From: a virus
Length of the DNA stretch: 64,000 nucleotides
IMG/VR virus record: IMGVR_UViG_3300031772_000009
Coordinates: 1 to 64,000 of that record
Direction: 5' to 3' (one strand)
Positions 5,675 through 22,414 of the stretch are shown piece by piece. Position 1 is the first letter of the stretch. Each line of letters opens with the position of its first letter. The notes below the pieces were generated by a model. The model did no database searches. It was not told the DNA's origin and saw only the letters and a program-made list of their open reading frames with translations. Position numbers and translations under genes: made by a program.

Positions 5675-6159
5675 AACCGAAAACCGAAAGTGAAAAGACG
5701 AACAGACTCATTCTTAAGCGACTTACTAGCATAGAATTTAGACTTGGAACACTGGAGAATACTTTGCGAATATTAGAAAGTGGAATTGATAAACCCAAAC
5801 GATATTTATTATTCGGTGAATGTGTGCCGCCACCATCAGTATGTAAAGACATATATGGAACAATGATTGGAAACTCAAGTTATGAGGGGTTCTTAGGAAG
5901 ACTTGCTGAATATTACAAATGTGAACGTATGAAATTGTTAGTAAATCCAGAAAGAAATAGAGAGGACACTATAGCAATGTATTATCCATATGAAAAGATA
6001 GCATATTCAAAAGATGCTACGGTTGCCCAAAGTACGGTTCTGCATGAGTGGTTTCATCATATGGTAAATCTTGGAGTCGTATATCTATCAGAAAAGGAAA
6101 AGAAAGAAGAGGAAGTTTACGCTAGAAATTTTACAGAAATGTTTTTGGGGAGAATATGA
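5671..6159 (+). CDS. HExxH zincin-like protein
   Basis: VLHEWFHH...EE..A. Confidence 0.65.
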   Translation: MKPKTESEKTNRLILKRLTSIEFRLGTLENTLRILESGIDKPKRYLLFGECVPPPSVCKDIYGTMIGNSSYEGFLGRLAEYYKCERMKLLVNPERNREDTIAMYYPYEKIAYSKDATVAQSTVLHEWFHHMVNLGVVYLSEKEKKEEEVYARNFTEMFLGRI

Positions 6160-6528
6160 ATGGATAAGACTAACGTTTCGTGTTCCAGACCATGTTCAGA
6201 CGGTAAACCATGTTTGCCCGATGAAGACAAATGCCCTTTGAAATACGAGATAGACTTGGATAATTTGGTTTTTGAAATCAGAAAGTCCACTCCTAAACAT
6301 TATCGTAGAGCCAAAGTCTGGGTTAAGAGGGACAAGGCAAGAATAATAATAACTGACGAAGAACGTTGGTTTGGATGGTTGGATATGTGTGTTATGTTGA
6401 ATCATGAGTTTCTACACTGGATACTTTGTTGTATTACTGGACAGAAGTGGGGACTCAAGAAATATGATGAATTCTTGGATAGTTTAGGTTTATACAATCA
6501 TGATGTCTTGATGGAGATATGGTTATGA
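6160..6528 (+). CDS. small HExxH protein
   Basis: LNHEFLHW. Confidence 0.6.
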   Translation: MDKTNVSCSRPCSDGKPCLPDEDKCPLKYEIDLDNLVFEIRKSTPKHYRRAKVWVKRDKARIIITDEERWFGWLDMCVMLNHEFLHWILCCITGQKWGLKKYDEFLDSLGLYNHDVLMEIWL

Positions 6529-6728
6529 CAATTTGGCTAATCTTGGCTTTCTTGTTAGGTTTTTTCGTTCAGAGAATCATTATTGCTAGACATAAAGGAT
6601 TTATGAAGTTGGGTTCAAGTTGGAAATTGAACAATAACAAAATCTATAAATGGTTGCACAGAATCTTTTGTGAATGTTGTCCCAGAAGATTATACTGTGA
6701 TGAATACAAAAAGAGGATTAAGAAATGA
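6519..6728 (+). CDS. small membrane protein
   Basis: N-terminal TM helix. Confidence 0.6.
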   Translation: MVMTIWLILAFLLGFFVQRIIIARHKGFMKLGSSWKLNNNKIYKWLHRIFCECCPRRLYCDEYKKRIKK

Positions 6729-7543
6729 AAATTGGCTGGATTGCAGACAACTTCTATCCAGATGTTAAACGTGGAGCAGAAATAGAAGATTACCTTCTAA
6801 TTCAAGAAGGACTCAGACGTGGACATAAAATAATCAAAATGGGAAAATTGAACAAAAACGTTGATGGGTTCATAGTGGCAAACTTCCTAGACAACATTAA
6901 TATTGGAGAATTGTTTGCTTATCTGTCACGTAAACCATACATCAAAATTGAACATGACTTGCGTGGACCAATGATTCCGTTTTATAAGATGCTTGCTAGT
7001 GAAGCGTTACTTGTTGTTTATCATAGTCCAATCCAACAAAGACTTATAGAGAAACATGGAGTGGTATATAAATGTTTCCTTCATCCAATGTGTGTTCCAA
7101 CAGAATTTAAGGATTTGAGATTGAAACGTAAACCAGAAACGGAAGTTCTCTATGTGGGAGACTATGCAAAGGAGAAAGGCTATCAAGAAATGGTAGAATG
7201 GCTTGAACAACGTCCAGAATACACAATTTGGCATTATGGTAGCGGATTTCCAAAACATCATCCAAGAATGAAAGAGATGGAGTCTATAGAACATGAAGAC
7301 ATGCCAAAGATTTACAACAAGTTTCAAACCTTAATCTTTCTTCCAGCCTTTCAACAAGCGTGTAGCCGAGTAATAGCCGAAGCATACCTCTGCAAAGTTC
7401 CAAACATAATCACTAATGGAAAAGACGGATTCACAAGTTACGGTTGGACAATGAACGATTACGATAAAGTGAGAGAAAGACTTATTAATGGTCACAAGAT
7501 ATTATGGGATAAAATTGAAGGGGAATTCGGCAATGCGTCATGA
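6725..7543 (+). CDS. glycosyltransferase (GT-B, GT4-like)
   Basis: LYVG...EKG, ACSRVIAEAYLC. Confidence 0.8.
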   Translation: MKIGWIADNFYPDVKRGAEIEDYLLIQEGLRRGHKIIKMGKLNKNVDGFIVANFLDNINIGELFAYLSRKPYIKIEHDLRGPMIPFYKMLASEALLVVYHSPIQQRLIEKHGVVYKCFLHPMCVPTEFKDLRLKRKPETEVLYVGDYAKEKGYQEMVEWLEQRPEYTIWHYGSGFPKHHPRMKEMESIEHEDMPKIYNKFQTLIFLPAFQQACSRVIAEAYLCKVPNIITNGKDGFTSYGWTMNDYDKVRERLINGHKILWDKIEGEFGNAS

Positions 7544-7904
7544 ACATTATAAGATGAAAAGAAAGACATTACAAGAAGTTTTGGCGAATCCATACTTCAT
7601 CAAATTCATAGAAGACTTGAAAAATTGTTCAACTGTGAAAGAAATCTACATTGTTGGTTCAATGGTTAGGAAAGGAGTAAGTAACAAAGACGTTGATATA
7701 AAAGTTGTAAGGATTGAACAGAATATGGCTGGAGACAAAGAAATCTACAATTTGGTTGATTCCTTTCCACATTTGTCTCCACATAAAAAGAAGTTAACTG
7801 CAATAAAGTATTTCATGATTGGAGATATTCTAATCAATGTTTTCTGGAGTGAAATGAGATTTGATAAACCATATACTCTTTTATGGAGAAATGAAAGTGC
7901 CTAA
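7533..7904 (+). CDS. minimal nucleotidyltransferase (Pol-beta superfamily)
   Basis: IYIVGS...KDVDI. Confidence 0.75.
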   Translation: MRHEHYKMKRKTLQEVLANPYFIKFIEDLKNCSTVKEIYIVGSMVRKGVSNKDVDIKVVRIEQNMAGDKEIYNLVDSFPHLSPHKKKLTAIKYFMIGDILINVFWSEMRFDKPYTLLWRNESA

Positions 7905-8976
7905 AGTTAAAAAGTGTAGAAAATGTGGAAGAAAAATATCCTTTGCTGATGATAGAGATTACTGTGTTCCATGTGGCAAAATAGTAGTAGAAGAACAAAA
8001 ATTGCAAACACAACAGAACGAAAGAGAAAAACTGAATATGTATATACGACAGAAGGAAGAAGAACTTAGAAAGGAAGGTTTGGCTACAAGTAGAGGGTTT
8101 CTAAACGTTTTAGTAATTATTGATGCGTATGGATGGGCTTATGATTTCATCATGAGGGGGATTCAAAAATATAGTAAACATAATATTAGAATTGTGGCTA
8201 TTGCAGACATTACTAAAGAAGACGTGGAGTGGCTTGACGTTTTGTATTGTATGCATGGTTGCATATTGAATGATATATGCAATCATATTGGTCTTTTCAA
8301 AGACGTGAAAAGAAAATGTATTGGAATATTTAGTGAAGTGTATGACGAGGACATTATCAAGATGGTTGGATGGAATGTTGGAGTTGCAAACCAGAAAATC
8401 TATGATGATATAATGCGAAAAACTCCACGTATCCCATTGAAAGGATTATATGTTACAAGGGCTGGCGTTGACACTGAAATTTTCAAACCGATGGATAGAC
8501 CAGATAATAGATTCATTGTTGGTTGGGTTGGTTGGGCTGACCGTCCACTTAAACGTTACAGATTACTTAAAGACTTAAAGTTTCCATTTATAGTTCAAAC
8601 TAAATGGGGATGGAAATTCTTCGTTAAAGACCGTTCAAGAGATGAAATGATTGATTTCTACAGTAGAATAGACTGTTTGATAAACACAAGTGACTCGGAA
8701 GCGTTTCCTCTTCCAGTTCTTGAGGCGGCGGCAACTAGACTTCCAGTAGTGGCTACAAGGACGAGTGGAGTACCAGAATTCATAGATTCAGAATGGCTTG
8801 TTCCGATTAATCCAGAACATGTAGCCATGAGAGAAATGAATTCTAAACTTCAACTGTTAAAAGATAATTTATCGTTGCGAAAACAAGTTGGAGAACAAAA
8901 CTTGCAGAAAGTTTTAAATAGGTGGGCGTGGAAGTATATGGTAAAAGAGTTCGATAAAATGTTTGAAGAGTCATGA
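7891..8976 (+). CDS. glycosyltransferase family 4 with N-terminal zinc finger
   Basis: AGVD, VGWVG, SEAFPLPVLEAAA. Confidence 0.88.
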   Translation: MKVPKVKKCRKCGRKISFADDRDYCVPCGKIVVEEQKLQTQQNEREKLNMYIRQKEEELRKEGLATSRGFLNVLVIIDAYGWAYDFIMRGIQKYSKHNIRIVAIADITKEDVEWLDVLYCMHGCILNDICNHIGLFKDVKRKCIGIFSEVYDEDIIKMVGWNVGVANQKIYDDIMRKTPRIPLKGLYVTRAGVDTEIFKPMDRPDNRFIVGWVGWADRPLKRYRLLKDLKFPFIVQTKWGWKFFVKDRSRDEMIDFYSRIDCLINTSDSEAFPLPVLEAAATRLPVVATRTSGVPEFIDSEWLVPINPEHVAMREMNSKLQLLKDNLSLRKQVGEQNLQKVLNRWAWKYMVKEFDKMFEES

Positions 8977-9764
8977 TTATGAACAGCAAAATAGGAAAGA
9001 ATTGCAAAATAAGCGATAAAGCTAGGATTAATGTTTCAGAATACTTTGAAATTGGAGATAGAAGTATCATTCGTGATAATACAATAATCGAAGGTAGACA
9101 TATTGAAATAGGTAAAGAAGCATGGATAGACGAATATGCTCATATTGGGGGCGGAAGTTGTTTTGACTATCAATCCTTCCTAAAAGCTGGAGATTTCTTA
9201 CACATGGGCAAGTTCTCTCATGTAAATACGGCTAGAAGAGTTATAATAGGTAACGAATGTGGCATTGGTATAAACACTAAAATCTTTACTCATGGTGCAT
9301 ACCTTTCAGCCTATGAGGGGTTTCCGATACAGTTTGCCAATGTTGAAATTGGAGACAGAGTTTGGTTGCCTAATGCTTGGGTGAATCCCAATGTGAAAAT
9401 TGGAAACGATGTTGTTGTCGCCGCCATGTCTTTAGTTAATCGAGATTTACCAAGCGGTTGTTTGGCTGGTGGAATACCAGTAAAAATATTAAAGGAAAAT
9501 AGGTATCCTAGAAAGTTGTCTCAACAAGAGGAAGAACAATTGGTAATGAACATTGAGGATGATGTTCGAATGAAATTAAAGTTTGAAGAAAACAGAATTT
9601 ATCTTGAACATCCTAACACTACACAAGTTACGATGTTTGGTCTGAAAGAAAGAATAATTGAAGGAGTTGGAAATGAAAGAAGTGAAATTGTTAGAAATCA
9701 ATTGCGGAGATGTGGTATTAGGTTTAGATATTATATGGAAAATGGGAAGTATCTACCATGGTAG
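8973..9764 (+). CDS. hexapeptide-repeat (LbH) sugar acyltransferase
   Basis: hexapeptide repeats, VEIGDRVWL, GGIPVK. Confidence 0.88.
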   Translation: MIMNSKIGKNCKISDKARINVSEYFEIGDRSIIRDNTIIEGRHIEIGKEAWIDEYAHIGGGSCFDYQSFLKAGDFLHMGKFSHVNTARRVIIGNECGIGINTKIFTHGAYLSAYEGFPIQFANVEIGDRVWLPNAWVNPNVKIGNDVVVAAMSLVNRDLPSGCLAGGIPVKILKENRYPRKLSQQEEEQLVMNIEDDVRMKLKFEENRIYLEHPNTTQVTMFGLKERIIEGVGNERSEIVRNQLRRCGIRFRYYMENGKYLPW

Positions 9765-10375
9765 TATTAGCAATAGGAGCACATCCAGACGATATTGAAT
9801 TTGGTTGTTTTGGAACGTTGGCACGACTATCAAAAGTTCATGACATACACATTATTATCTTAACTCTGGGTGAATTGGCTGGTTCAAGCATTGTGAGAAT
9901 GGAAGAATGTAGACAGAGTGCAAAGTTGATTAATGCCACTCTACATTTCTTGGATTATGAAGAAGGAGACATATCTGTTAATGCTAGTAGTATTTTGAAA
10001 CTCAGAAATCACATTCGGTCAATTAATCCAAACATGATATTTACACTGTATCCTCAAGACACACATCAAGACCACAGAAATACTTCACAAATTACGGTTT
10101 CCGCTTGCCGTGATTGGAAACCAGATAGACAGAATATTGATGAAATACTATTTTACGAAGTAGTTAGCACAACGAATTTTCGTCCTAACATGTTTTATGA
10201 CATTACTGACTTTTTCCCTTTGAAAAAATCGGCTTTATCCATTCACTCATCCCAAAATGCAAAGATTTGCATGGATTTGAAAGTCTTGGAAGCATTGGCT
10301 CTCGTACATGCCAACAACTGTGGTTATAAAGACCGCTTATTCGAAGCGTTCTATCTATACAAAGCGGTTAAATGA
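9758..10375 (+). CDS. PIG-L/LmbE family deacetylase
   Basis: GAHPDDIE, HQDH, HSSQ. Confidence 0.93.
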   Translation: MVVLAIGAHPDDIEFGCFGTLARLSKVHDIHIIILTLGELAGSSIVRMEECRQSAKLINATLHFLDYEEGDISVNASSILKLRNHIRSINPNMIFTLYPQDTHQDHRNTSQITVSACRDWKPDRQNIDEILFYEVVSTTNFRPNMFYDITDFFPLKKSALSIHSSQNAKICMDLKVLEALALVHANNCGYKDRLFEAFYLYKAVK

Positions 10376-11460
10376 GGGACTACATAATGGAAAGTGAGAA
10401 AGAGAAATATCGCCAAGCCTTTCAAAACTTCATTGGTAAGCAAGAAATAAATGATTTGATTTTTCCGAGAATATATTGGTTTGACGATGCGTTGTTAGAC
10501 CAATATGAAGTTGGTTTTCCAATACTCAAAAAATACAATTTAAAACATGGAGTAATTCTAGCAGTTCCAACCAGATATGTGGGCAAAACTTTTCCGTGGA
10601 CAGACCCATATGTAGATTTGCCAATGATGAATATTAGTCAAATAAAAGAAATGATGGAGTATGGTGTTTTAATTGCAAGTCACACTGTCACACATTCATG
10701 TTTTAAAGGCATGACTAAAGAAAGATTGGTTTGGGAATTAACTGAAAGCAAAAAATGGATAGAAACAAATTTGGGAGTCACTCCTAAAATTCTTGTTGTT
10801 CCCTTCAATGATTATTCTCAAGAACAAAAAGACATTATTCTTGAACATTATTCACATGTTAGACCATCCACAATCCCATCCATATCTGGTTATTACAACC
10901 TTCACCATAACTTTAGAGACGATAAAGAAAAGAAGTTGTCAAAAAGGTGGGGAAAAGAATTTTTTAAACTGTTAACTCCAGCTTTTGAAGACAAGATAAA
11001 AATGGAACGTTCAGTACGATTTTCATTGGGATTTTATGATTTGAAAACTGAGTTTGACAAGACCAAAATCAAGATTCCAGAAATCTCTCTTCCAGAAGGA
11101 TATAGAGTTTGTTTTGCTATTCCAGATAAGGATGGGAAACTTTGCGAGAAAGACAAACAAATATGGCATTCACTACATAGTAACGAAATGTTCGTCAAGA
11201 TTGTTCATCCAGAAAACGCCGAAGGAGTAATATTTGCTTATTATAAAGATGAGCCGATTGGATGTTTCGTTGTAAACACTTATGGAGACACAGTTGAATT
11301 TGAACATGCTATAGTAGTTGAATTTCATAGAAGGAAGGGAATATACAAAGCAATGATGGTTCTTGGTCTCCATTATGCTGTGCAAAAGCAAGAAATTAAA
11401 TGGATAATAGCGATTCCACTTCAAACGTTAGAATCTTTTTGGGACAAAGTAAGAGGATGA
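10372..11460 (+). CDS. polysaccharide deacetylase fused to GNAT domain
   Basis: FDD, ASHTVTH (NodB); C-terminal V..FHRRKGIY. Confidence 0.8.
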   Translation: MRDYIMESEKEKYRQAFQNFIGKQEINDLIFPRIYWFDDALLDQYEVGFPILKKYNLKHGVILAVPTRYVGKTFPWTDPYVDLPMMNISQIKEMMEYGVLIASHTVTHSCFKGMTKERLVWELTESKKWIETNLGVTPKILVVPFNDYSQEQKDIILEHYSHVRPSTIPSISGYYNLHHNFRDDKEKKLSKRWGKEFFKLLTPAFEDKIKMERSVRFSLGFYDLKTEFDKTKIKIPEISLPEGYRVCFAIPDKDGKLCEKDKQIWHSLHSNEMFVKIVHPENAEGVIFAYYKDEPIGCFVVNTYGDTVEFEHAIVVEFHRRKGIYKAMMVLGLHYAVQKQEIKWIIAIPLQTLESFWDKVRG

Positions 11461-11464
11461 AAAA

Positions 11465-12403
11465 ATGAAAATTGTTTGGTTGGGAACTTTCAGAGAATGT
11501 CCATCTTGGAGATATTTCAGAAGAGACTTGAAAAATTACGTGGAACTAAAATGTTATGGAGAATCTCCTAACCCAAACCGTCTAAATGAAATGGGTGGGG
11601 ACACTTCTCATTTTTATAAAACGAACATAAATGACTGGATTGAAGGTTACGATGTTAAGGAAATAGAAAGGTTAGAGAATCCAGATTGGATATTTATCTG
11701 TGCTTACAGTAGTAAAATGAATTACTTAAACTTGGATAAAGTGCAAACTCCAAAAGCCATTTGGATAGGCGACCCGATTCAAGACAAAGTTAGAATTTTT
11801 CCAAAAATAAAGGAATGGAAAATAGATAAAGTGTTCTGTCATTATTGGACGGGAACAATTGAACCTTACATGGAAGAATATAAAGCCGATTATTATCATC
11901 TTCCACACTCAGTTGATACTAAAGTTTTCTATCCTACTGGGAAAGAAAGGTCTTTAGATTTGGCTTTTGCTGGATGTATTAACTCCTATTGGTATCCTCT
12001 TCGAGACAAATACATTAGACACTTAAATAATCTACGGAAACATAAAATACAAATCAGTGAACATTTTGGCACTATAGAAGAATACGTTGATTTGATAAAT
12101 CGAGCAAGATTCTTTCTTGCAGATGGTGGACTATATAGATATGCCGTTTGTAAATATTTTGAAATCATGGCTTGTCAAACCGTACCTATCGGTGCAGAAC
12201 CACTAGATGCAGACATTCTTCACATTAAATCAAATTTCAATCTAGCTCCCATGCGGGGAGACCATATCATTGAAGATTTTATTTATTGGATTGAAAACGA
12301 GAAAGAACGTGAATCTTTGGCTAAAGCGGCATATGAGACAGTCATGAAATATCACACTAACAAAATAAGAATAAAACAACTTTTGGAAATGTTGAAGAAA
12401 TGA
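11465..12403 (+). CDS. glycosyltransferase (CgeB-like)
   Basis: LPHSVD, YPLR, KYFEIMAC, HT..RI. Confidence 0.8.
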   Translation: MKIVWLGTFRECPSWRYFRRDLKNYVELKCYGESPNPNRLNEMGGDTSHFYKTNINDWIEGYDVKEIERLENPDWIFICAYSSKMNYLNLDKVQTPKAIWIGDPIQDKVRIFPKIKEWKIDKVFCHYWTGTIEPYMEEYKADYYHLPHSVDTKVFYPTGKERSLDLAFAGCINSYWYPLRDKYIRHLNNLRKHKIQISEHFGTIEEYVDLINRARFFLADGGLYRYAVCKYFEIMACQTVPIGAEPLDADILHIKSNFNLAPMRGDHIIEDFIYWIENEKERESLAKAAYETVMKYHTNKIRIKQLLEMLKK

Positions 12404-12404
12404 G

Positions 12405-12420
12405 GAAACCTTTATTAGTC
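12405..12420 (+). promoter_or_regulatory. archaeal BRE-TATA promoter, GAAACC class
   Basis: gaaacctttattagtc, identical at 57002. Confidence 0.65.
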
Positions 12421-12452
12421 TCTTTGAGGTCTTTATCTAAAGAGGTTATAAA

Positions 12453-13364
12453 ATGAAGATATTGGTAACTGGTGGTTCGGGATTCATAGGAAGCCACTTA
12501 GTAGATTTGCTTTTAGATAAAGGTTATCAAGTTAGTGTTGTAGATGGACATCCAGTGAAAAACAAAAATGCTGAATGGATTGATGGAGATTTGAGATGGA
12601 TAGGCGACTGTGACAAATCCGTAGAAGGAAAAGACGTAGTATTCCATCTAGCCGCTAGAATCAGCATTGACGAATCAATTGACCGTGTTTGGCACTATTT
12701 CAATGATAACTATCTGTCAACCATAAATATTTGTATGTCTTGTAAGAAATTCAACGTAAAACGTTTAGTTGACATTTCCTCTTGTGAAGTATATGGCAAT
12801 GTTCCTAAAGGCAAAGCAGACGAATCTAACCCTTGCAACCCAACATCGCCTTACGCCGCAAGCAAATATGCGGCTGAACGTAGTGCAATAGCATTTTGCA
12901 GTTCATTCAACATTCCAATAACTGTTATCCGTCCATTCAACGTCTTCGGAGAAAGACAAAAAGCTTTCCGTGGCGGTTCAGTGATTCCCACATTCATACA
13001 ATTAGCGTTACATGACAAACCTTTAATCATACATGGTGACGGCAACCAAATCAGAGACTATCTATATGTTAAAGACACTGTTGGTTTGTTATCACTTACG
13101 TTAGAAAGAGAGTTGGGAAACACTGAGATTCTAAACGTTGCTTCTGGAGATGGACGAACAATAAAAGACATAGCAGAAAAAATCATTGAATATACGAAAA
13201 GCAATTCTAAACTTGAATTCATTGATGACCCCAGAGGAAAAGCACAAATGTTGAGGAGTGTTGGAAATTCAGACAGAGCTAGGACGTTGTTAGGATGGAG
13301 ACCCATTTATGACTTTGATTCGGCTCTGAAAAAAACAATTGAGTTCTATAAAAAAACCGAGTGA
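12453..13364 (+). CDS. NAD-dependent nucleotide-sugar epimerase/dehydratase
   Basis: VTGGSGFIG, YAASK, RPFNVFG, GDGNQIRDY. Confidence 0.95.
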   Translation: MKILVTGGSGFIGSHLVDLLLDKGYQVSVVDGHPVKNKNAEWIDGDLRWIGDCDKSVEGKDVVFHLAARISIDESIDRVWHYFNDNYLSTINICMSCKKFNVKRLVDISSCEVYGNVPKGKADESNPCNPTSPYAASKYAAERSAIAFCSSFNIPITVIRPFNVFGERQKAFRGGSVIPTFIQLALHDKPLIIHGDGNQIRDYLYVKDTVGLLSLTLERELGNTEILNVASGDGRTIKDIAEKIIEYTKSNSKLEFIDDPRGKAQMLRSVGNSDRARTLLGWRPIYDFDSALKKTIEFYKKTE

Positions 13365-13368
13365 TAAG

Positions 13369-13557
13369 ATGGAAAAACCCAAAGTTTGCAAAGCTAAAAA
13401 TTGTATGCATTGTCGTTATTGTGGAAAAACCATAGTTTGGCAAAAGGGATGCCGAAATTCTTTAAAAGACATGGTTCGTGGAAATATATTCATGGAATTA
13501 TGTATGGATTGCATGAAAAAAATTGCCAAGTATTGGTTGGAATTACATGGAATCTAA
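13369..13557 (+). CDS. small zinc-finger protein
   Basis: CxxC pairs. Confidence 0.55.
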   Translation: MEKPKVCKAKNCMHCRYCGKTIVWQKGCRNSLKDMVRGNIFMELCMDCMKKIAKYWLELHGI

Positions 13558-13915
13558 AGATAAAAGAATGGAACTTAGACTGTGTAAGGGACCGAAAGAC
13601 CCCAACTTGTATTCTTGTAGACATGAATGGGGAGAAGTGAAAGAGGAAGGAGCAAAGGACAATCAGACTTACGCTAAATGTAAACATTGTGGTTTAGTCT
13701 GTCCAATTCCTAAAGGCGGAGAATACCCACCAGAATGTATAGAACATAGATTAAACAAAGTTCCCGAAATAACTAAAAAGAAAGATAATAGATGTCCTAA
13801 ATGCGGTCTTCTACCAGATTTATGCATGTGTGAACACGAAGATAAACTGAAACTGGTAAACGCTAAAGACTTTAATGACCCAAGAAGTGAAGGGTGTGGA
13901 GAGTGTGAAAAGTAA
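13547..13915 (+). CDS. Cys-rich hypothetical protein
   Basis: CxxC motifs, CPKCGLLPDLCMC. Confidence 0.6.
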   Translation: MESKDKRMELRLCKGPKDPNLYSCRHEWGEVKEEGAKDNQTYAKCKHCGLVCPIPKGGEYPPECIEHRLNKVPEITKKKDNRCPKCGLLPDLCMCEHEDKLKLVNAKDFNDPRSEGCGECEK

Positions 13916-14196
13916 TGCCATATATTAAAAAAGCTTTAAGAGAACCAATAGATGAAAAATTAGACCTGTTAATAGGACGACTGAATGAAATGCTTACCTA
14001 TATAGATGGGAAAGACTTAGCCGCATGTCTAACTTACATAGTTTTCAAACTCATTCGTAGATACTATGAAAATGGTAAATGGTATGACAAGATGGACGCT
14101 GAGAAAGTTTGTGCATCAGCAATAGACGAATTCAAAAGACGATTCCTTCATCCATATGAAGAGATGAAAATTGCAGAAAATGGAGATGTTTATTAA
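13915..14196 (+). CDS. conserved viral protein (DUF6899-like)
   Basis: MPYIK...EFKRR..PYE.KI.ENGDV. Confidence 0.7.
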   Translation: MPYIKKALREPIDEKLDLLIGRLNEMLTYIDGKDLAACLTYIVFKLIRRYYENGKWYDKMDAEKVCASAIDEFKRRFLHPYEEMKIAENGDVY

Positions 14197-14414
14197 TGCC
14201 AAGAGGAAATGTAGACATGTCTGAGAAAACAAAAAGACATAAGGTATCTGGACATGGAAGTGTCTCTAAGGCTGGAAAAGTTAGGAATCAAACTCCCAAA
14301 GTTCCTAAAAGTGTAAGTCATTCTAAACGTAGTTGCCCCCGCCTCAAGAACAAAAAGAAATATTATAACCGAATGATTCTAAAGCGAAAGTGTGGTCAAA
14401 ACTGGGTGAAATGA
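14196..14414 (+). CDS. rps30e: 30S ribosomal protein eS30
   Basis: HGSVSKAGKVRNQTPK...PR..N..Y..R...GQNW signature. Confidence 0.9.
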   Translation: MPRGNVDMSEKTKRHKVSGHGSVSKAGKVRNQTPKVPKSVSHSKRSCPRLKNKKKYYNRMILKRKCGQNWVK

Positions 14415-14415
14415 T

Positions 14416-14847
14416 ATGTTCAAGATGTATTATGCATCAGCAGTAGATTGTAGTGTAGATTATGGTAAAGCTCAATTAAGACTTTTTAAGGAGTTATTCA
14501 AGAAGTATCCACAGATAGAAGTATGTGGTGCTGGAATAGGAGAATCACCAATAATAAGTCTTGACAGTAGCAAGACTCTGAAAAAGACTATAGTGGCTTA
14601 TGACCTAAGAAAACTTAGAGAATGTGATATACTATTAGTGGTTACGGATTTAGAAACTTATTGTGCTGGAACACACATGGAACTTGAATATGCTAGAAAC
14701 TTGGGACTATTGACTATAGTATTATGCGTTCATAAAAATGGCACTTGTAAATACGGTCTCAAGAATATTTTCATAGAAACGTTAGCAGATAAGGTAATCC
14801 ATTCTATCGAAGAATTAGAAGAAATACTTGAGGAGATAACGAAATAA
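14416..14847 (+). CDS. nucleoside 2-deoxyribosyltransferase-like protein
   Basis: DLRKLRECD..GTHMELEYA. Confidence 0.8.
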   Translation: MFKMYYASAVDCSVDYGKAQLRLFKELFKKYPQIEVCGAGIGESPIISLDSSKTLKKTIVAYDLRKLRECDILLVVTDLETYCAGTHMELEYARNLGLLTIVLCVHKNGTCKYGLKNIFIETLADKVIHSIEELEEILEEITK

Positions 14848-15296
14848 TGCGGAAAAAAGAAACTTGCCGAATAAAGGATGTAGATATACAGACTGGAACA
14901 TTAAGAGAAGGAATCCATGATTATACAATTAAAGATAGTGGAAAAAGAACCGAATTCAAGACTGGAGCAGTAAGAGATTTGCAGACTGGAAAGGGACGTT
15001 TCGACCTAGTTCCACCAGCAACTTTGAGAGCCTTGGCAATCCATTATGAGAAGGGTTGTCTGAAGTATGGAGACCGTAACTGGGAACTCGGAATATCAAT
15101 TCATACTTTTCTCAATTCGGCTGAAAGACATTTGCTTCAAGTGATTGATGGACGAGACGATGAGAACCACTTGGTAGCTTCAATATGGAATCTTTTTTGT
15201 GCCTACGAAACAATATTGAGGATTCAAGAAGGAAGGTTGCCGAAGGAACTTTATGATTTGCCACGGAAGATTCGGCTTCCCAACCCATACGAATAA
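14847..15296 (+). CDS. dATP/dGTP diphosphohydrolase domain protein (DUF5664-like)
   Basis: GAVRD..GKGRFDL, G..KYGDRNWE.G, RH, HL. Confidence 0.88.
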   Translation: MRKKETCRIKDVDIQTGTLREGIHDYTIKDSGKRTEFKTGAVRDLQTGKGRFDLVPPATLRALAIHYEKGCLKYGDRNWELGISIHTFLNSAERHLLQVIDGRDDENHLVASIWNLFCAYETILRIQEGRLPKELYDLPRKIRLPNPYE

Positions 15297-15300
15297 ACAG

Positions 15301-15320
15301 AAGCCTTATAACCCACATCT
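15301..15320 (+). promoter_or_regulatory. late-type promoter of structural genes
   Basis: aagccttataac..catct, repeated at 17929. Confidence 0.6.
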
Positions 15321-15342
15321 TCTATATAGAATATTATAATAA

Positions 15343-17607
15343 GTGACCATTATGGACGAAAGTAGAAGAGAAAAAGGTAGAAAAGCAATAGAAAATAGAA
15401 GAATACGTGATGAAAACCGAGTAGACGCTCAAGTAAAATTTGTTGATGACTTTCAAAAGTTTATAGAGACCCAGAAAAAGAAGACTGGAATACCAGAAGA
15501 GGAACTCATAAACGAAGTCTTGTCAACCCATGTTTCAATGGTGGAGTTTGACGAGACAACTGGAAAGGCAAGCCTAGTTTTTGACGCTTGGAAAGGCGTG
15601 GTGGTTGGAGAAGAAACAAAAGTTAGCCAAGCCACTCTGAAAGACTTTCGTGACTTGAGAGAAAACTTTGCTCCAGTAAGTGCTGGAATAGAATGGCATA
15701 GAGACTTCACATCGGGTGGCGGATTTCTTGTTCAGATAGACGACCCAACAGACAAGAACCAAAATACTATGCGAGAAGAAATCAATCTGCTTAACCGAAA
15801 CGTTTATCAAGACCAATACGTGAAGGGACTCGACAACATTCTCGACATAGAAATAGATATTGCTTTGACTGACGGCTGTGCGGCGGCTGAAATAGTCTAT
15901 ACTAAAGAAGTCGCATTTGAAGATTATATAGACGAAATAGAAGAAGTAATGTTGGATGATGGGAAGAAAGTAAAAGTTTTAAAGCCTAAAGAAATGACGA
16001 GTGAATTATGGAAAGACCTCGGCGGAATTACCAGACTAAAAATCATTGAGGATTCATACACCCGTCTAGTTCCGTATCGCCATCCGAAAAGTGGGGAAAT
16101 ACTTTATTGGACTCTGGATGAGAAAGGTGGAAAGGACAATCAAGGTTTATCATATGAAGACATTGTGAGTAAGGAAAAGAAAGCCAATAAACCAATCATA
16201 AAGTTTCATCCTTGGGAAATCCTTTGGTTGTCATGGAATCAACGTGGAACAAACCTTAAAGGCATGAGCATGATTCAATCAGTCTACAAGATTGCCAAGA
16301 TGGTGCAAGAAATACAGACTTCAGTTGGAAAAGGTTTCAACAGATGGGCTAACAAGAAATACTTCTTCGTGTGTGGAAGTGAACGGAGACAATGGAACAA
16401 AGTTTACAGAACCGAATTCTTGAAAGCAATGGAGAAAATGATAAAGAACAACTGGGTTGGAATTCCAGTTCCAGCAGAATTCGAAATTAAAGAGATTGGT
16501 GGAGAACAATCAGTCTTTGATGGAAAGAATATATTAGACCACTTGATTGGAATGATTGCGGCTGGAATGCAGTATCCAAGAGAGTTCCTTGAGGTTGGAC
16601 GTACACAAGCAAGCGACAAGGCTTGGTTGGCATGGACAGTCCGTTATGGACGAAGCCAATTACAGATACGCCGAGCAATAGAACATCAACTTTGGGAGAG
16701 ACATTTATGGTGCAAGTTCGGAATGACTAAAAAGAAAAGCGTGAAGGGAGTCGAAAAAGAAAAGCAAGAAGACATTCCAATTTACGTTCCGAAACTTCAA
16801 TGGAAAGCGGAAGGTCAATGGTTGAAGGACGCAAAGATAAAGTTGCTTACTGGACTGTTGAATGTGGCTAACCCGATAGATTACCCGTTGAAGATGCCCG
16901 TCCAGAAGGAAATGGGAGCAACGATTGGCATTGGAGAAATAGACTGGAAAGACATAGAGGATTTGTTTGATACTCAAAACAAGATTAAGATTGCAAATGC
17001 AAAAATGGAACAGATGAAAGCGGAAGCGAAACTTGGCGAAATGGAAAAGATGAGTCAAGAAGAACTGATAAAGTTAGTTACGCCAGCACCAACTACTCCA
17101 CAGCCACAGACTTCAGAAGAGAAACTTCAAGAGCAAGAGAGGAAACGTACTGAAGCTGGAGTTTCAAGAACAACTAAAGAGACTGGAACACAGACAAAGA
17201 AGGGACAAGCTAAAGAGATGGGTGGAACAAGATTGGCTGAAACAGTTGAACAGTTAGAATTGCCACAAGACATACTTGACGGAATCAAGAAACTTGTGAA
17301 TGCTAGGTTACGTAAACAAGAAATGGAAAATGAGACAAGTGAAATAGTATTGGAGAACGCTAAAAAGATGAGTGAAGTGGCAAAAGTGGAATCTGAATCC
17401 AGTCAAAAAAAGACAGAGTTGACAGAGTTAGAATTGGAAGCCATAAAAGAGAAAGCAAAAACTGAAAAGGAATTGGCTGAGATGGAAAAAGAAAATACTA
17501 AAAAGAAAAGAGAATTAACAGAAATAGAGTTGGAAGACGCTAAAAAGAAGAGGGAACAACGAAAAGAACTTGATGAGGAAATCAAAAAGGTGAAGAAGAA
17601 ACAATGA
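15343..17607 (+). CDS. portal protein with C-terminal coiled-coil extension
   Basis: size, G.S.I..V motif, portal-like layout, next to structural genes. Confidence 0.65.
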   Translation: MTIMDESRREKGRKAIENRRIRDENRVDAQVKFVDDFQKFIETQKKKTGIPEEELINEVLSTHVSMVEFDETTGKASLVFDAWKGVVVGEETKVSQATLKDFRDLRENFAPVSAGIEWHRDFTSGGGFLVQIDDPTDKNQNTMREEINLLNRNVYQDQYVKGLDNILDIEIDIALTDGCAAAEIVYTKEVAFEDYIDEIEEVMLDDGKKVKVLKPKEMTSELWKDLGGITRLKIIEDSYTRLVPYRHPKSGEILYWTLDEKGGKDNQGLSYEDIVSKEKKANKPIIKFHPWEILWLSWNQRGTNLKGMSMIQSVYKIAKMVQEIQTSVGKGFNRWANKKYFFVCGSERRQWNKVYRTEFLKAMEKMIKNNWVGIPVPAEFEIKEIGGEQSVFDGKNILDHLIGMIAAGMQYPREFLEVGRTQASDKAWLAWTVRYGRSQLQIRRAIEHQLWERHLWCKFGMTKKKSVKGVEKEKQEDIPIYVPKLQWKAEGQWLKDAKIKLLTGLLNVANPIDYPLKMPVQKEMGATIGIGEIDWKDIEDLFDTQNKIKIANAKMEQMKAEAKLGEMEKMSQEELIKLVTPAPTTPQPQTSEEKLQEQERKRTEAGVSRTTKETGTQTKKGQAKEMGGTRLAETVEQLELPQDILDGIKKLVNARLRKQEMENETSEIVLENAKKMSEVAKVESESSQKKTELTELELEAIKEKAKTEKELAEMEKENTKKKRELTEIELEDAKKKREQRKELDEEIKKVKKKQ

Positions 17608-17939
17608 GACAAGAAAAACTATTTCAGTATTTTAAAGACCCACAACTTACACAGCCAATATACAATTTAGAGTTTCCAGAACCAGTGGTGGCTGGACGAG
17701 AAAAGGGAGAATTGACGGTTTACGCCCACAATATTAGTTCAGCAGAACTTTATGATTTAGAGTTCACTCCTAAAGACCCAGACCTCAAAATAGACAAAAG
17801 TAGCGACAAGGTGAACCCTAAAGAAACTATAATACTAAAGTTTACTTTCACTCCAGCAGAAGACAGAAAAGAACCGTTAAACACGGAGTTTACCGTGACT
17901 ACCAAGGGAATCATCAGAGCAAATCCGAAAGCCTTATAA
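17604..17939 (+). CDS. Ig-like domain virion protein
   Basis: beta-rich, V.P.E...L.FTFTP. Confidence 0.55.
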   Translation: MRQEKLFQYFKDPQLTQPIYNLEFPEPVVAGREKGELTVYAHNISSAELYDLEFTPKDPDLKIDKSSDKVNPKETIILKFTFTPAEDRKEPLNTEFTVTTKGIIRANPKAL

Positions 17940-17976
17940 CTCCCATCTCATCTATATAAGTTAAGAAGTTGATAAT

Positions 17977-18534
17977 ATGAACAGAAAAGAATCGTTTGGA
18001 TTTGCAGACTCAATCGAATGGGTACATAAAGACAAAGACGGCAACGTAATCAAGAGATACAATTCTGATACTCGCTGGAATAGATTCTTAAAGAGAGTTC
18101 ACTTGAAAAGACGTAACTGTTTAACCTATGACGGCATGAGAATCGTTGCTGGATTGATGACTGTGGATGTTGGCAATACTGCATTTGACTATATCGGCAT
18201 TGGAACTGGAGCAGTAGCCGCCGATGTATCGGATAGAGCATTAGGAACTCAGAAGTCAAGATTGGGCGGAGCATTATGTACGGGAACTATCGTGAAGACC
18301 GATGCGGGATGCACATTTGATACTATGCAATTAGTTGTGGTATTCTCAAAGGCGAATGACGCTGGATTAACTGGTGCGGTGCAGAACATTACTGAAGTTG
18401 GAGTATTCAACCATACAAGCAATGTGACTGATACGATGCTGTTTAGACAAGTATTTGCGGCTGAAGCCATGAACTGGGATTTACTCGATACTTTAACGAT
18501 GACTTGTAAGATGCAAGTCAAGCAAGGTACATGA
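17977..18534 (+). CDS. virion structural protein (tail/baseplate-associated)
   Basis: YIGIGTG...D.AL, ITEVGVF, LFRQV. Confidence 0.7.
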   Translation: MNRKESFGFADSIEWVHKDKDGNVIKRYNSDTRWNRFLKRVHLKRRNCLTYDGMRIVAGLMTVDVGNTAFDYIGIGTGAVAADVSDRALGTQKSRLGGALCTGTIVKTDAGCTFDTMQLVVVFSKANDAGLTGAVQNITEVGVFNHTSNVTDTMLFRQVFAAEAMNWDLLDTLTMTCKMQVKQGT

Positions 18535-18664
18535 CATTCTAAGGTAATCTAAATATGGTCAATGAAATTAAAGACGAATATACTGGAAAGTTTACAAATT
18601 ATCTAATGGCTATTCTTCTTTTAGTTTCTATAGCCGTTAATAAAATTATAGAGGGTAGAGAATA

Positions 18665-20491
18665 ATGACTAATTGGCTTACTGGTTGGGGATTTAGGAAG
18701 AGCCACATTATTACGGCAAGTGCTGGTGCTGGAACTAACTATCAGACTTGCATCAAAGTCTATAAGACTACGGGGACAGATGGTACTGAAACTGTTAATG
18801 GTGTTACTGCTGGAAAGGTATATGTTGGTTCTAATTGCAGAAACGACTTTGGAGACATTAGATTTACAGATAATGATGGAGATACTTTGCTTGACTGTTG
18901 GATGGAAGAATTATCAAGTGGAGTATATGCCATTTTCTGGGTTGAAGTGGCTGATACTCTTGAATCTAATGCAACCATCTATGTCTATTATAGCAAATCA
19001 GACGCTACTTATCCTTATCTTGCAACTGTCTTAGCTCAAGGAGAAGCTACATTTAGGTTCTTTGATGACTTTCTTGCGGCTAATATAGATTGGACTAACA
19101 AATGGCAATCAACCAAGCAGACAAATTTCTCAATTGAGAGTGGTGCATTGAAGATTGTGATGGGTACTACTGACACAGAGCTAATCAACACAAAGAACTC
19201 TTATGGTGATGGATATGCTTCAAGTGCATTAATTCGTGCGGCTACAAGTGGCAAACGAGTCTTGAATATGAATAATGATATTCCAGCCACTTGGAGAGAT
19301 AAGGATGCTGGAAGAGTGCTTTGGGTAATTGGGAAACTTCAATGTGCATTGAATGGTACACCCAGTGAACTTGTTGAAAGTCAAGACTTAACAAATTACT
19401 ATAAGAGTAAAATATATTGTCCAGCTTCTGGTGATGCTACGGTTACTCTGTTGAAAGCTGGAGTAGTAAAGCTAACAAGAACAGCCGCACCAGCTTACAG
19501 AACCGTCTATGTAAGCTTTAGCACTTGGGATGGTACGGGATATGTGGATGATGTATATGTTAGAAAATATGTTAGTCCAGAACCAGCACATAGCACTTGG
19601 GGAACAGAAGAAGTTCCAGCAGTAGCCCACTCTCTAACAATTACTGAAATAATCGGTTGTGTAGACAGTAAAAGTAGAAACAAAACAATCAATAGAACCT
19701 ATTCGGAACTGTTGGGATTAACAGATAGTAAATCCAGAATCAAATCATATTTTAGAACCATAACTGAATTGTTGGGTTTGAAAGATAGTAAAAGCAGAGT
19801 AAAATCATATTATAGAACCATAACTGAACTACTTGGACTAAAAGATTTAAGTAAAAGTTGGATTCACGGAAAGTTTCTAACTATAATTGAAATTATAGGT
19901 TTGAAAGATAGTAAGTCAAGAGTAAAGAGTATTCATAGAACCATAACGGAAAAACTAGGATTAAAAGAAACTAGAAGTCGAAGTAAAACAATCAGTAGAG
20001 TCATAACTGAACTGATTGGGATGAAGGATGCTGTTACGAAAGTTGCTTGGCATTGGAGTTTACCACCCGTACCACCAGTAATAACTGCCGCCGTTGGCAA
20101 AATCAAACATGTGTTGCTTGACAAGTTTCTGGGTTGGCTTGAGCAACCAGCAGAAGACAACCCTAGAGTACAGTGTGACGTGAAAGTAAGTTGGACTCAG
20201 ACCAACAGAGTTGCTTCCAGCATAAAAGATTTATTCACTGAAACAGTAACTATAAGAGGCAAACTGGCTCACGTCTTCACGGAAACAATGCCTATAACCG
20301 CCGCACTTTTACACGAATTTACTGAAAGTGTCCAGATTAGGGGTTCTATCATTCAAAAGTTTGAGGAGACAGTCCACATAACTGGAGACCTAATGAAAGC
20401 AGTGATTGAGGACGGACTAAAAGTTTTCGGTGAAGTTACTCCGTTATTGGAGAAACTCCGAGAATTGAAACGTAGGATAGAAGAAAATTAG
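18665..20491 (+). CDS. DUF2341 domain virion/tail-fibre-like protein with 20-aa repeats
   Basis: DFGDIRFTD..LL.W..FWV; FFDDF; repeats ITELLGLKDSKSR. Confidence 0.75.
   Translation: MTNWLTGWGFRKSHIITASAGAGTNYQTCIKVYKTTGTDGTETVNGVTAGKVYVGSNCRNDFGDIRFTDNDGDTLLDCWMEELSSGVYAIFWVEVADTLESNATIYVYYSKSDATYPYLATVLAQGEATFRFFDDFLAANIDWTNKWQSTKQTNFSIESGALKIVMGTTDTELINTKNSYGDGYASSALIRAATSGKRVLNMNNDIPATWRDKDAGRVLWVIGKLQCALNGTPSELVESQDLTNYYKSKIYCPASGDATVTLLKAGVVKLTRTAAPAYRTVYVSFSTWDGTGYVDDVYVRKYVSPEPAHSTWGTEEVPAVAHSLTITEIIGCVDSKSRNKTINRTYSELLGLTDSKSRIKSYFRTITELLGLKDSKSRVKSYYRTITELLGLKDLSKSWIHGKFLTIIEIIGLKDSKSRVKSIHRTITEKLGLKETRSRSKTISRVITELIGMKDAVTKVAWHWSLPPVPPVITAAVGKIKHVLLDKFLGWLEQPAEDNPRVQCDVKVSWTQTNRVASSIKDLFTETVTIRGKLAHVFTETMPITAALLHEFTESVQIRGSIIQKFEETVHITGDLMKAVIEDGLKVFGEVTPLLEKLRELKRRIEEN
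19636..20030 (+). repeat. ~60-bp coding tandem repeat (about 7 units)
   Basis: RT(I)TELLGLKDSKSRVKS unit. Confidence 0.85.
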
Positions 20492-20527
20492 CGAAACCCT
20501 TATATTCTTGTTTTCCTATTTTATTCA

Positions 20528-20688
20528 ACGGTATGCGGGACAATTCGAAGTGAATAAGGGTTAATCAATGAAGATGGACTCACGTTCATCCAAGTTGGTT
20601 TCATGCGAGACCACCCTAAAACAGAGTTGAAAGCCATGACGCAAAAGCCATAATGATGGCGTAATGTGCGAGCCTACCTTGCATCCGT
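20528..20688 (+). ncRNA. putative structured ncRNA (~160 nt)
   Basis: TATA at ~20500, paired ends acggtatgcggg/cttgcatccgt, internal hairpins, T-tract. Confidence 0.6.
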
Positions 20689-20745
20689 CTTTTTTATAGA
20701 AACCCTTAATAGTCTCTTCTTATATTCTTATGACATAGTGATAAA

Positions 20746-21543
20746 ATGCCTAAGACTAAAAAGATAGAAGAGAAATCAGATAAACCACAACCACCTAAAG
20801 CAGTGGTTTTGATTAGTACAGTTTCAAATATTGGTATGAGGAACGAGTACAGCGTTAACGCCATGATTCATTTGGCTTGGGTTTGCGGAGCATATGGAAT
20901 CCAGATAATCGCTGGAACATACGATGAATGCCCAATTAGCGTAGCAAGAAACATGGCTTGCGAAGAAATGCTTAAGAACCCCAAGATAACACATTTGTTC
21001 TTTGTTGATTCGGACTGTGTTCCAGACCCAGACACAATACTAAAGTTTCTCAGTTACGATTTACCAGTAGTTAGCGGCTGGTATCTAAGCAGAAAAGGTA
21101 GCGGTCTTCCAGTAGTGTTCAAACTTGAAGAATCCACAGAACACAAAACCATGCCTTCAATAGTTGCCCTTCACGACTTGTTCCCGAAATGGCGGAGTTA
21201 CAAGCTTGACGAACTGTTGACTTTACAGAAAGAAAAGAATGGACTAACAAAAGTGGACGGCGTAGGTGCTGGATGCTTACTGATTAAACGTGAAACACTC
21301 TCCCACCTTGACCAGCCATATTTCTTTGAAGACAACACCAAAAAATATGGTTTCGGAGAAGACTTGTTCTTCAGCCTCAACTGTAAACTCCACGACATTC
21401 CAATCTATGTTGACTTGAACAAGTTCTGCAAACACTGGACTTGGGGACTCATAGACATGCGACACGTCCAAGCATTGCTTCAACGGTCAAGACAAGAACA
21501 ACAACAAACAAAAACCCAACAACCCGAAAATCGCCCTATGTAA
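20746..21543 (+). CDS. glycosyltransferase family 2-like
   Basis: ARN, LFFVDSD, GAGCLLI, GEDLFF. Confidence 0.85.
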   Translation: MPKTKKIEEKSDKPQPPKAVVLISTVSNIGMRNEYSVNAMIHLAWVCGAYGIQIIAGTYDECPISVARNMACEEMLKNPKITHLFFVDSDCVPDPDTILKFLSYDLPVVSGWYLSRKGSGLPVVFKLEESTEHKTMPSIVALHDLFPKWRSYKLDELLTLQKEKNGLTKVDGVGAGCLLIKRETLSHLDQPYFFEDNTKKYGFGEDLFFSLNCKLHDIPIYVDLNKFCKHWTWGLIDMRHVQALLQRSRQEQQQTKTQQPENRPM

Positions 21544-21592
21544 CTCGATGGGGGTCTGTTAAAAACTAGGAGTATGTTTTTGGGGGTAACTG

Positions 21593-21817
21593 TTGATGGA
21601 AGGTAATATGACTCCGAAAGACAAAGAAAAGTTTGAGAGGATATGGAAGAAACTTGGCGAAAAAGAACTGAGCAATGACGATTTGAAACGGCTTGTCTAT
21701 TGGTTAATAATTGCATTGGGAGCAGAAGGTTGGTTTACTTTAGAATTAAAGGAAACGGCGAAACGTTTTGGAATCTTAGAATTACTTGAAGAAGGACTAA
21801 AATCTCCATCTGAATAA
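21593..21817 (+). CDS. hypothetical protein (C-terminus supplied by HNH cassette)
   Basis: tail duplicated at the end of the downstream HNH. Confidence 0.65.
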   Translation: MMEGNMTPKDKEKFERIWKKLGEKELSNDDLKRLVYWLIIALGAEGWFTLELKETAKRFGILELLEEGLKSPSE

Positions 21818-21856
21818 ACATAAGACTTATATCTCTCTTTTTACTTTATATTCTTT

Positions 21857-22414
21857 ATGTCTCAAGAAAATGAAAGATGTCATGAAAGACATAGAGAATA
21901 CTGTAGAAAATGGCGACAAACCCATAAAGAACAACTTAGAGAATATAACAAAAAATATAGAACCACTGAAAAATATAAGAAAAAACATAGAGAGTACTAT
22001 AAACATAATTCCAAAAAACATAATGAATATACTAAGAAATGGAGAGAACAAAACAAAGACCATGTTAAAGAATACACCAGAAAATACTATTTATTACATA
22101 AAAAAGAGAAGAATGTAGACCGCATGAATAGATTCCGAGAGTTAAAACAGAAATATGTTAACTTATTGGGTGGTAAATGTCAAATTTGCGGATATAATAA
22201 AGATAATGGAGCATTACACTTTCATCATTTAAATCCAGATGAGAAAGAAAGAACAAAGGAAGCTTTAAGAGTAGCTTTTGAGCCTAAAATAAGAAATGGA
22301 AGTATCCAGTTACTTTGTGCTAATTGTCATCAAGAAATACATGATGGATTCACGAATGAATTAAAGGAGACGGTTAAGAGACTAGGAATAGAAGACTGGT
22401 TCAAGAGAGAGTAG
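21857..22414 (+). CDS. HNH homing endonuclease
   Basis: LGGKCQICG..LHFHH..LLCANCH; basic helical repeats. Confidence 0.88.
   Translation: MSQENERCHERHREYCRKWRQTHKEQLREYNKKYRTTEKYKKKHREYYKHNSKKHNEYTKKWREQNKDHVKEYTRKYYLLHKKEKNVDRMNRFRELKQKYVNLLGGKCQICGYNKDNGALHFHHLNPDEKERTKEALRVAFEPKIRNGSIQLLCANCHQEIHDGFTNELKETVKRLGIEDWFKRE

Follow-up and report, generated by a model that had tools for sequence, protein, structure and literature searches.

The eS30 locus

The window analysed here, which is the first 64,000 nucleotides of a 91,361-bp viral record in IMG/VR (IMGVR_UViG_3300031772_000009), contains a gene for a member of the eS30 family of small-subunit ribosomal proteins. Its open reading frame extends from an ATG start to a TGA stop and encodes 72 amino acids (Table 1). 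The gene sits in a tight block of co-directional genes. Its start codon shares one base with the stop codon of a preceding DUF6899 gene, and the ATG of the gene that follows begins one base after its own stop codon. Within the end of the DUF6899 gene there is also an SD-like element at a short distance from the eS30 start. The overlap, the element and the downstream spacing are kept in all four orthologues, that is, in the window and in contigs L092, L093 and L094 from other metagenomes. In these three contigs the SD-like element appears at the same place as GGAGATG, GGTGA and GGTGAT, respectively. Such junctions bear out the predicted translational coupling of the eS30 gene to its neighbours, which had been proposed in an initial annotation of this DNA.

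Table 1. The eS30 gene, its parts and its immediate neighbours, with positions in the window
Feature	Position	Strand	Basis
Upstream DUF6899 gene, 93 aa	13915..14196	+	Pfam PF21840, 48.3 bits
SD-like GGAGATG, 7 nt before the eS30 ATG, within the end of the upstream gene	14182..14188	+	Sequence; putative ribosome-binding role
TAATG, in which the DUF6899 TAA stop overlaps the eS30 ATG by one base	14194..14198	+	Sequence; present in all four orthologous contigs
Viral eS30 gene, 72 aa and TGA stop	14196..14414	+	ORF list, Pfam PF04758, PDB match, orthologues L092/L093/L094
eS30 codons 1-19: 16-residue basic head and Val-Ser-Gly replacing cellular Met-Pro-Thr	14196..14252	+	80 cellular copies, alignment, start-codon check
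eS30 core, His20 to Lys72 (HGS..KAGKVR.QTPK ... PR ... Y..R..L.RK.GQNW)	14253..14411	+	Pfam and NCBIfam match
Downstream gene, 143 aa, weak likeness to nucleoside 2-deoxyribosyltransferase	14416..14847	+	PF05014 Nuc_deoxyrib_tr, 25 bits, E 2.1e-5, cut-off 28.8
dATP/dGTP diphosphohydrolase-like gene, 149 aa	14847..15296	+	PF18909 dGTP_diPhyd_N, 64.6 bits, E 8.6e-18

The same annotation described the surrounding genes as belonging to nucleotide metabolism. This description suits the dATP/dGTP diphosphohydrolase-like gene, but the likeness of the gene between it and eS30 to nucleoside 2-deoxyribosyltransferases stays under the cut-off for that family. The diphosphohydrolase-like gene is followed by one for a 754-aa protein (15343-17607) that has no family match. 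On the upstream side there is a glycan-modification module, then a group of small zinc-ribbon proteins and then the directly adjoining DUF6899 gene.

The sugar-modification genes occupy approximately 13 kb (537-13364 of the window). At least three of them encode GT4 glycosyltransferases (537-1712, 3539-4696 and 7861-8976). Also present are genes for a hexapeptide transferase (8973-9764), for a polysaccharide deacetylase with a fused GNAT domain (10372-11460) and for an NAD-dependent sugar epimerase/dehydratase (12453-13364). One more glycosyltransferase gene, the fourth, is found near the end of the genome (L002:16013-17275, where L001 and L002 denote pieces of the same viral genome that lie beyond the window). 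A scan for promoters and terminators of the bacterial type, which is inapplicable to archaea, yielded nothing above shuffled controls.

The viral genome

The contig that carries the eS30 gene is a complete genome of a tailed archaeal virus and includes no host chromosome. Its first and last 127 bases are identical and form an exact direct terminal repeat, and IMG/VR accordingly places the record in its DTR (direct terminal repeats) class with a CheckV completeness of 100%. Genes outside the window specify a large terminase (phrog_2, E 1e-21), tail proteins and a major capsid protein of the HK97 type (phrog_267, E 2.8e-11), which also scores slightly over the cut-off of PF25209. An archaeal LonB-like protease and a Rad51/RadA recombinase are encoded there too. 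The concern raised in the initial annotation, that the contig might be host chromosome rather than virus, is removed by the terminal repeat, the completeness estimate and the terminase, capsid and tail genes.

Genes recognised as belonging to the head and tail are located at about 67-69 kb and 82-86 kb of the genome. In its last 27 kb, the LonB-like AAA protease gene is found at L001:13604-15781, the large terminase gene at L001:17906-19612 on the minus strand, the HK97 capsid gene at L002:13302-14210 and the Rad51/RadA gene at L002:17865-18869. The viral genes are dense, small and nearly all on one strand, and GC content is about 36% throughout.

Contigs L092, L093 and L094 are collinear with the window across the eS30 gene. 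At least 27% of the sampled words from this region are also present in each of eight sequencing runs (seven plus the probable source run), all of which are sediment metagenomes. With three collinear contigs from other samples and eight runs that hold the region, mis-assembly is excluded. The large terminase has no matches among 50,697 GenBank phage and archaeal-virus records, and single-sequence patterns revealed no relative of it in IMG/VR. The viral eS30 has no match in the GenBank phage set either. Searches of the viral genome for three other ribosomal proteins, eS25, eS26 and eL21, found none of them.

Identity and core conservation

Profile searches confirm the eS30 signature recognised in the initial annotation, at a level well outside what chance would produce. 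The viral protein matches Pfam PF04758 (Ribosomal_S30) with 48.3 bits (gathering cut-off 27, E 1.2e-12) in an alignment that spans viral residues 20-70 and profile positions 3-57 of 58. When the whole genome was searched in six frames, a single Ribosomal_S30 match appeared, which is to the same gene (48.2 bits). When all PDB chains were searched, the top match was the eS30 chain of Saccharolobus solfataricus (9fhl_e, E 1.4e-8), with viral residues 19-65 aligned to residues 3-47 of this chain. The matches that come after it are dozens of eukaryotic eS30 chains.

The NCBIfam model NF006817, an equivalog model for '30S ribosomal protein S30e', is more demanding in its cut-off of 75 bits. Against it the viral protein scores 53 bits, and other viral copies considered below score 35 (L003), 48 (L005) and 66.6 bits (L004). 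Among seven cellular copies, six with Bathyarchaeia or Bathyarchaeota labels score 77-83 bits, and one labelled Nitrososphaerota scores 70.7 bits. Since its score is below this cut-off, the viral eS30 is best described as a diverged relative: it is classed as a member of the eS30 superfamily by Pfam and as a non-equivalog form by the NCBI criterion. It matches no PHROG family, and hence none of the known families of phage proteins, whether structural or of another kind.

The best cellular copies are 43-61% identical to the viral protein. When the four viral orthologues are aligned with 80 cellular eS30 proteins, all of them retain the cellular residue in 22 of the 28 columns with conservation of 90% or more, whereas only 7 of 25 variable columns agree with the cellular consensus. 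The core residues present include HGS, KAGKVR, QTPK, Pro48-Arg49, Tyr56, Arg59 and GQNW. Three of the six changed conserved columns are accounted for by replacement of M-P-T with V-S-G; the others are conservative substitutions of L by V/I and of R by K, and a substitution of K by N.

Two cysteines, Cys47 (14334-14336) and Cys66 (14391-14393), co-occur in the window, L092, L093 and P0002. They are replaced by Gly and Ser in L094/P0003, and the corresponding consensus residues of cellular eS30 are Ser and Pro. In this small number of sequences, the two residues may constitute a covarying pair.

The N-terminal head

The viral protein begins with a head of 16 residues, five of them basic and two acidic, that is followed by Val17-Ser18-Gly19. 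The latter three residues align with cellular Met-Pro-Thr. This basic N-terminal extension, which had already been noticed in the initial annotation, is absent from all 80 of the best cellular matches; these were taken from species-representative genomes, nearly all of them Bathyarchaeia MAGs, and every one begins with MPTHGS or a close variant. Mature archaeal eS30 starts with Pro2-(Thr/Ser)-His, an N-terminus that the predicted viral protein does not have. Apparent upstream extensions on some cellular matches were rejected as non-coding read-through. Ribosomal_S30 is the sole Pfam match of the viral protein, and no ubiquitin-like domain, Gly-Gly or recognisable cleavage motif was found in the head, whose length falls short of that of a domain.

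Codon usage at the junction can be used to determine where translation begins. The Val codon preceding Ser-Gly-His-Gly-Ser is GTA in four of the five long forms that have Val at this position (the window, L092, L093 and L003) and GTG in L094; the sixth long form examined, from L005, has Arg instead. GTA is not a start codon, and translation of the four GTA-bearing genes is therefore assigned to the upstream ATG. A shorter protein beginning beside the HGS motif was rejected for these genes on the same grounds. Four of the six long forms have no in-frame ATG, GTG or TTG upstream of the motif other than the first ATG. The window and L092 contain a second ATG at codon 8, use of which would leave a 9-residue head. 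The N-terminal extension is, on this codon evidence, a real part of the encoded protein.

Selection on the gene can be followed through its orthologues, whose protein identities to the viral eS30 are 97%, about 92% and 73% (L092, L093 and L094 taken as a set). Nei-Gojobori dN/dS values are 0.12-0.26 in five of the six ortholog pairs (64 shared codons). The closest pair, the window and L093, gives 0.79 on only 8 differences. The low ratios in five of six pairs indicate that the gene is maintained by purifying selection in this virus lineage. Within the head, the first 8 residues vary among orthologues. When the window is compared with L094, to which it is 73% identical overall, residues 10-19 show a single replacement along with two silent changes. 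The near invariance of residues 10-19, together with recurrence of the junction in the approximately 19 long forms described below, marks the head as a constrained feature.

Long forms of eS30 in other genomes

When 1.8 billion representative proteins were searched exhaustively with HMMER, 58 matched at E up to 1e-3. About 19 of these carry a basic N-terminal head that is joined to the core by an x-S-G-HGS or x-G-[ST]-HGS junction. In IMG/VR, eS30 genes are confined to a handful of further viral records. The long proteins include those of two other viral contig groups. One is L003, a 156-kb IMG/VR record that encodes an 81-aa long eS30. The other consists of five IMG/VR contigs of 38-82 kb (L005-L009) that all encode one identical 79-aa long eS30 (9926-10165). 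These five contigs come from different samples. Their eS30 has an altered C-terminus without GQNW, and a protein with five NUMOD3 motifs is encoded about 2 kb from it. A second scan of IMG/VR with the long-form motif found no further contigs.

Three other viral records, L004 (133 kb), L010 and L011, encode eS30 proteins with cellular-type starts. The L004 gene (9983-10183) begins with MPTHGS, and a DUF6899 homologue with 39% identity is located 4 kb from it. In addition to DUF6899, L004 has a glycosyltransferase, a PNGase-like protein and one small protein in common with the window virus. The headless eS30 of L004 and the genes that it shares with the window virus together imply that related viruses carry eS30 both with and without the head. 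In L011, a 77-kb record, the cellular-type eS30 gene (9992-10174) is about 2 kb downstream of an anaerobic ribonucleotide reductase gene, NrdD with an ATP-cone (5982-8093). The neighbours of eS30 on other viral records are mostly ORFans. Of the eS30-bearing records in IMG/VR besides that of the window virus, three are classed as proviruses. Four other eS30-bearing viral records were searched for eS26, and none was found in them.

Metagenome contigs with a QTPKVPK pattern (L095-L108) were found to encode eukaryotic ubiquitin-eS30 fusions of high-GC protists or algae. These fusions do not resemble the viral long form and are unrelated to the virus. Bathyarchaeia-type eS30 is also present in two MAGs labelled as bacteria, Krumholzibacteriaceae (L055) and Acidoferrum (L090), most likely as a result of bin contamination by archaeal contigs.

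A gene tree was built from 51-54 usable columns, which are too few to place the viral clade among cellular groups or to show the origin of the gene. The clade of the window sequence has an SH-aLRT value of 95 and a stem branch of 0.55 changes per site. A tree constrained to unite the 19 long forms in a single clade withstands the AU test (p-AU 0.87, or 0.63 when the N-terminal columns are omitted), so that one common origin is compatible with these few columns though not demonstrated by them.

The host

Ribosomal protein eS30 is limited to TACK/Asgard archaea and eukaryotes (PMC11698992, PMC8354635), and the host is therefore expected to be an eS30-bearing archaeon of the TACK/Asgard type. The initial annotation had given this distribution, along with a site at the mRNA entry channel and an N-terminal end near the A site, and the same two papers agree with it. 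Its further suggestion that the gene points to the host group holds as far as eS30-bearing archaea; the evidence leads to no narrower assignment, and Bathyarchaeia are only favoured.

The ranking of cellular eS30 proteins favours Bathyarchaeia (43-61% identity), with the top identity of 61% belonging to a MAG labelled Nitrososphaeria. When a 20-kb piece of the virus was compared at the DNA level, 27 of 401 Bathyarchaeia genomes showed matches at E up to 1e-4, against 10 of 401 genomes in the class of G007, a Nitrososphaeria-labelled MAG; these ten include G539, which is unpublished. The sediment origin of all runs that contain 27% or more of the words of the region also speaks for Bathyarchaeia. 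The best Bathyarchaeia match (4.8e-17) is in a DUF2341 gene, and there are also short matches in the eS30 motif. No perfect spacer-like match to window positions 12001-32000 was found in the 401 Bathyarchaeia genomes searched. Among proteins, RadA shows 35-39% identity to all five archaeal genomes tried, and the best matches of the sugar epimerase are 37-38% identical in the Bathyarchaeia class sample and 41% identical in the class of G007; neither protein tells the classes apart. The host is probably a member of Bathyarchaeia or of another Thermoproteota lineage, and among eS30-bearing archaea Bathyarchaeia are the most likely host.

The strongest DNA likeness between the virus and Bathyarchaeia covers window positions 18833-19008, within the DUF2341 gene (18665-20491). 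It amounts to 72% over 167 nt in G303 and to 82% over 70 nt in G343. This similarity may have arisen by gene exchange, or it may reflect the presence of viral contigs within those bins.

Possible roles of the viral eS30

In the S. solfataricus 30S subunit, eS30 is located at the mRNA entry channel and contacts h16, and its Pro2 packs on h44 beside the A site (PMC11698992). The N-terminal tail of eukaryotic eS30 contains a conserved His that stabilises the A-site codon-anticodon pair, and it touches eIF1A and eEF2 (PMC11698992). The N-terminal end points to the A-site decoding centre, and FUBI that is left uncleaved at this end blocks late 40S maturation (PMC8354635). What eS30 does in archaeal ribosomes is stated to be still unknown (PMC11698992).

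The viral eS30 keeps the core and the conserved His, and its Pro2 end is replaced by the conserved junction and the basic head. As far as its sequence goes, the balance tips towards a working, virus-adapted eS30 of the small subunit. In the mechanism proposed here, the protein would be made during infection and would enter the host 30S subunit where eS30 normally binds, between h16 and h18, whether by joining subunits as they are newly assembled or by displacing the host copy. That it enters ribosomes is quite probable.

The head is predicted to lie in or beside the decoding centre, in the A-site and aIF1A region, because Pro2 of the archaeal protein packs on h44 and the eukaryotic N-terminal tail contacts the A site. 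From this position it could change initiation-factor binding, decoding or translocation in favour of the virus. Alternatively, its effect could be to keep ribosomes active under host translation shutdown. The proposal that the head itself changes ribosome behaviour is tentative and could well prove wrong. Doubtful, at somewhat longer odds, is the broader idea that long eS30 is a virus-specific ribosome-reprogramming factor, by which several lineages of large tailed archaeal viruses replace the host eS30 with a copy whose head occupies the A-site and aIF1A region, and so bias initiation or decoding to viral mRNAs or resist shutdown. The suggestion in the initial annotation that the protein might tune translation of near-cognate start codons is speculative. 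Other outcomes are conceivable as well. A whole FUBI domain at the N-terminal end of eS30 is harmful in human cells (PMC8354635), and so the viral head might need to be cut off, or it might inhibit ribosomes. The diverged viral protein may also have lost the ability to bind ribosomes.

The main rival explanation is that, once host synthesis is shut off, the viral protein only supplements or takes the place of a small ribosomal protein that is peripheral and perhaps exchangeable, and that its head is neutral or is removed by a protease, with no reprogramming of the ribosome. Ordinary eS30 binding of this kind is what the conserved core speaks for, and a head that does not matter would be in keeping with the freedom of its first 8 residues to vary. 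There is precedent for removal in holozoan eS30, which is naturally made with an N-terminal part that needs cleavage (PMC8354635), and the LonB-like protease encoded by the virus could be counted in favour of the same fate here. However, the residues nearest to the core (10-19) are conserved among orthologues, and a peptide that is inert or discarded would not be expected to show a basic x-S-G-HGS junction that is found again in distant long forms. The head also has no Gly-Gly, other recognisable cleavage motif or ubiquitin-like domain, and no obvious cut would recreate the strongly conserved Pro2 end of the cellular protein. Simple supply of eS30 with an idle head is consequently considered unlikely.

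A very basic protein of 72 aa with a pI of about 11 might instead work away from the ribosome. It could bind nucleic acid, for instance to condense the genome in the virion or to chaperone RNA, or it could sequester host factors or rRNA precursors as a decoy and so stop host ribosomes from being assembled. Divergence is in line with such a change of role, with an NF006817 score under the cut-off and a clade on a long stem of 0.55 changes per site, and extra N-terminal residues located at the decoding site might have an inhibitory effect (PMC8354635). The gene is also just upstream of the large gene at 15343-17607 that has no family match; the identified head and tail genes lie elsewhere. The positions that are held fixed are ribosomal ones, which makes a role off the ribosome less likely: 22 of 28 invariant cellular positions are kept while variable ones drift, and a generic basic binder would not fix these. 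Nor does the protein belong to any PHROG family. An off-ribosome role is judged to be improbable. Least credible is an artefact or passenger, that is, mis-assembled host DNA or a recently captured host gene that is decaying and has no viral role. Ribosomal protein genes in viral bins are often contamination, and the three provirus records among other eS30 carriers might be cited for this view. Against it stand a genome closed by a direct terminal repeat, the same gene order in three independent contigs, the position of the gene inside an overlapping co-directional block, dN/dS well below 1 in five of six ortholog pairs, and identity of only 43-61% to any cellular copy combined with a distinct N-terminus. 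The chance that the gene is such an artefact or passenger is very slight.

Relation to known systems

Most known virus-encoded ribosomal proteins come from bacteriophages, and what they do is for the most part still unproven. The present case is archaeal and involves a protein that occurs only in TACK/Asgard archaea and eukaryotes, in a form that is changed at exactly the end that faces the decoding centre. The virus probably modifies host ribosomes. A concrete hypothesis is that the head alters aIF1A binding, tRNA selection or translocation. Work on what eS30 does in archaeal ribosomes could use the viral protein as a natural probe, and the presence of its gene identifies the host as an archaeon that has eS30. 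If long eS30 does reprogramme ribosomes, this would be the first virus to edit an archaeal/eukaryotic-type decoding centre with its own ribosomal protein.

A literature search found no paper that reports eS30 in archaeal viruses. In the survey by Mizuno et al., the one occurrence of eS30 is the antisense fau insert carried by a murine retrovirus (PMC6375957). A study from 2023 gave eL21 of haloarchaeal tailed viruses, and then bL19 of Kunpengvirus, as the only ribosomal proteins known from archaeal viruses (PMC10541130), and a survey from 2026 added S6e, L15, L15e and L30 in archaeal proviruses (PMC13573593). Like the virus studied here, these are archaeal virus or provirus genomes with a ribosomal protein homologue. 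Unlike it, they are not listed with eS30, and no virus-specific extension toward the decoding centre is described for them; eL21 is in turn absent from the present genome.

The closest counterparts among phages are bS21 and similar proteins (Mizuno et al. 2019, PMC6375957). Like bS21, the viral eS30 is a small, basic protein at the periphery of the small subunit that lies on the path of the mRNA. Each is borne by tailed viruses, is under purifying selection and is thought to replace the host copy. They belong to different families, and bS21 is found at the platform/exit side of the subunit whereas eS30 is at the mRNA entry/A-site side. The viral eS30 also differs from bS21 in that the ribosome concerned is of archaeal/eukaryotic type and not bacterial, and in its systematic N-terminal addition.

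The FUBI-eS30 (FAU) and ubiquitin-eS30 precursors (PMC8354635) resemble the viral protein in a different respect, since they are likewise eS30 proteins made with extra N-terminal residues at the end that faces the A site. In these precursors the addition is a ubiquitin-like domain of about 74 aa that ends in Gly-Gly and is cleaved, in contrast to the viral head of about 16 aa, which matches no domain and has no Gly-Gly.

The most direct comparison is with cellular archaeal eS30 itself (PF04758, NF006817, 9fhl; PMC11698992). The cellular and viral proteins have the same core motifs (HGS..KAGKVR.QTPK, PR, Y..R and GQNW) and the same core length, and they probably occupy the same site at the mRNA entry channel. 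They differ in that the cellular proteins are 53-55 aa in length, whereas the eS30 described here is 72 aa long, is encoded by a virus and carries a head.
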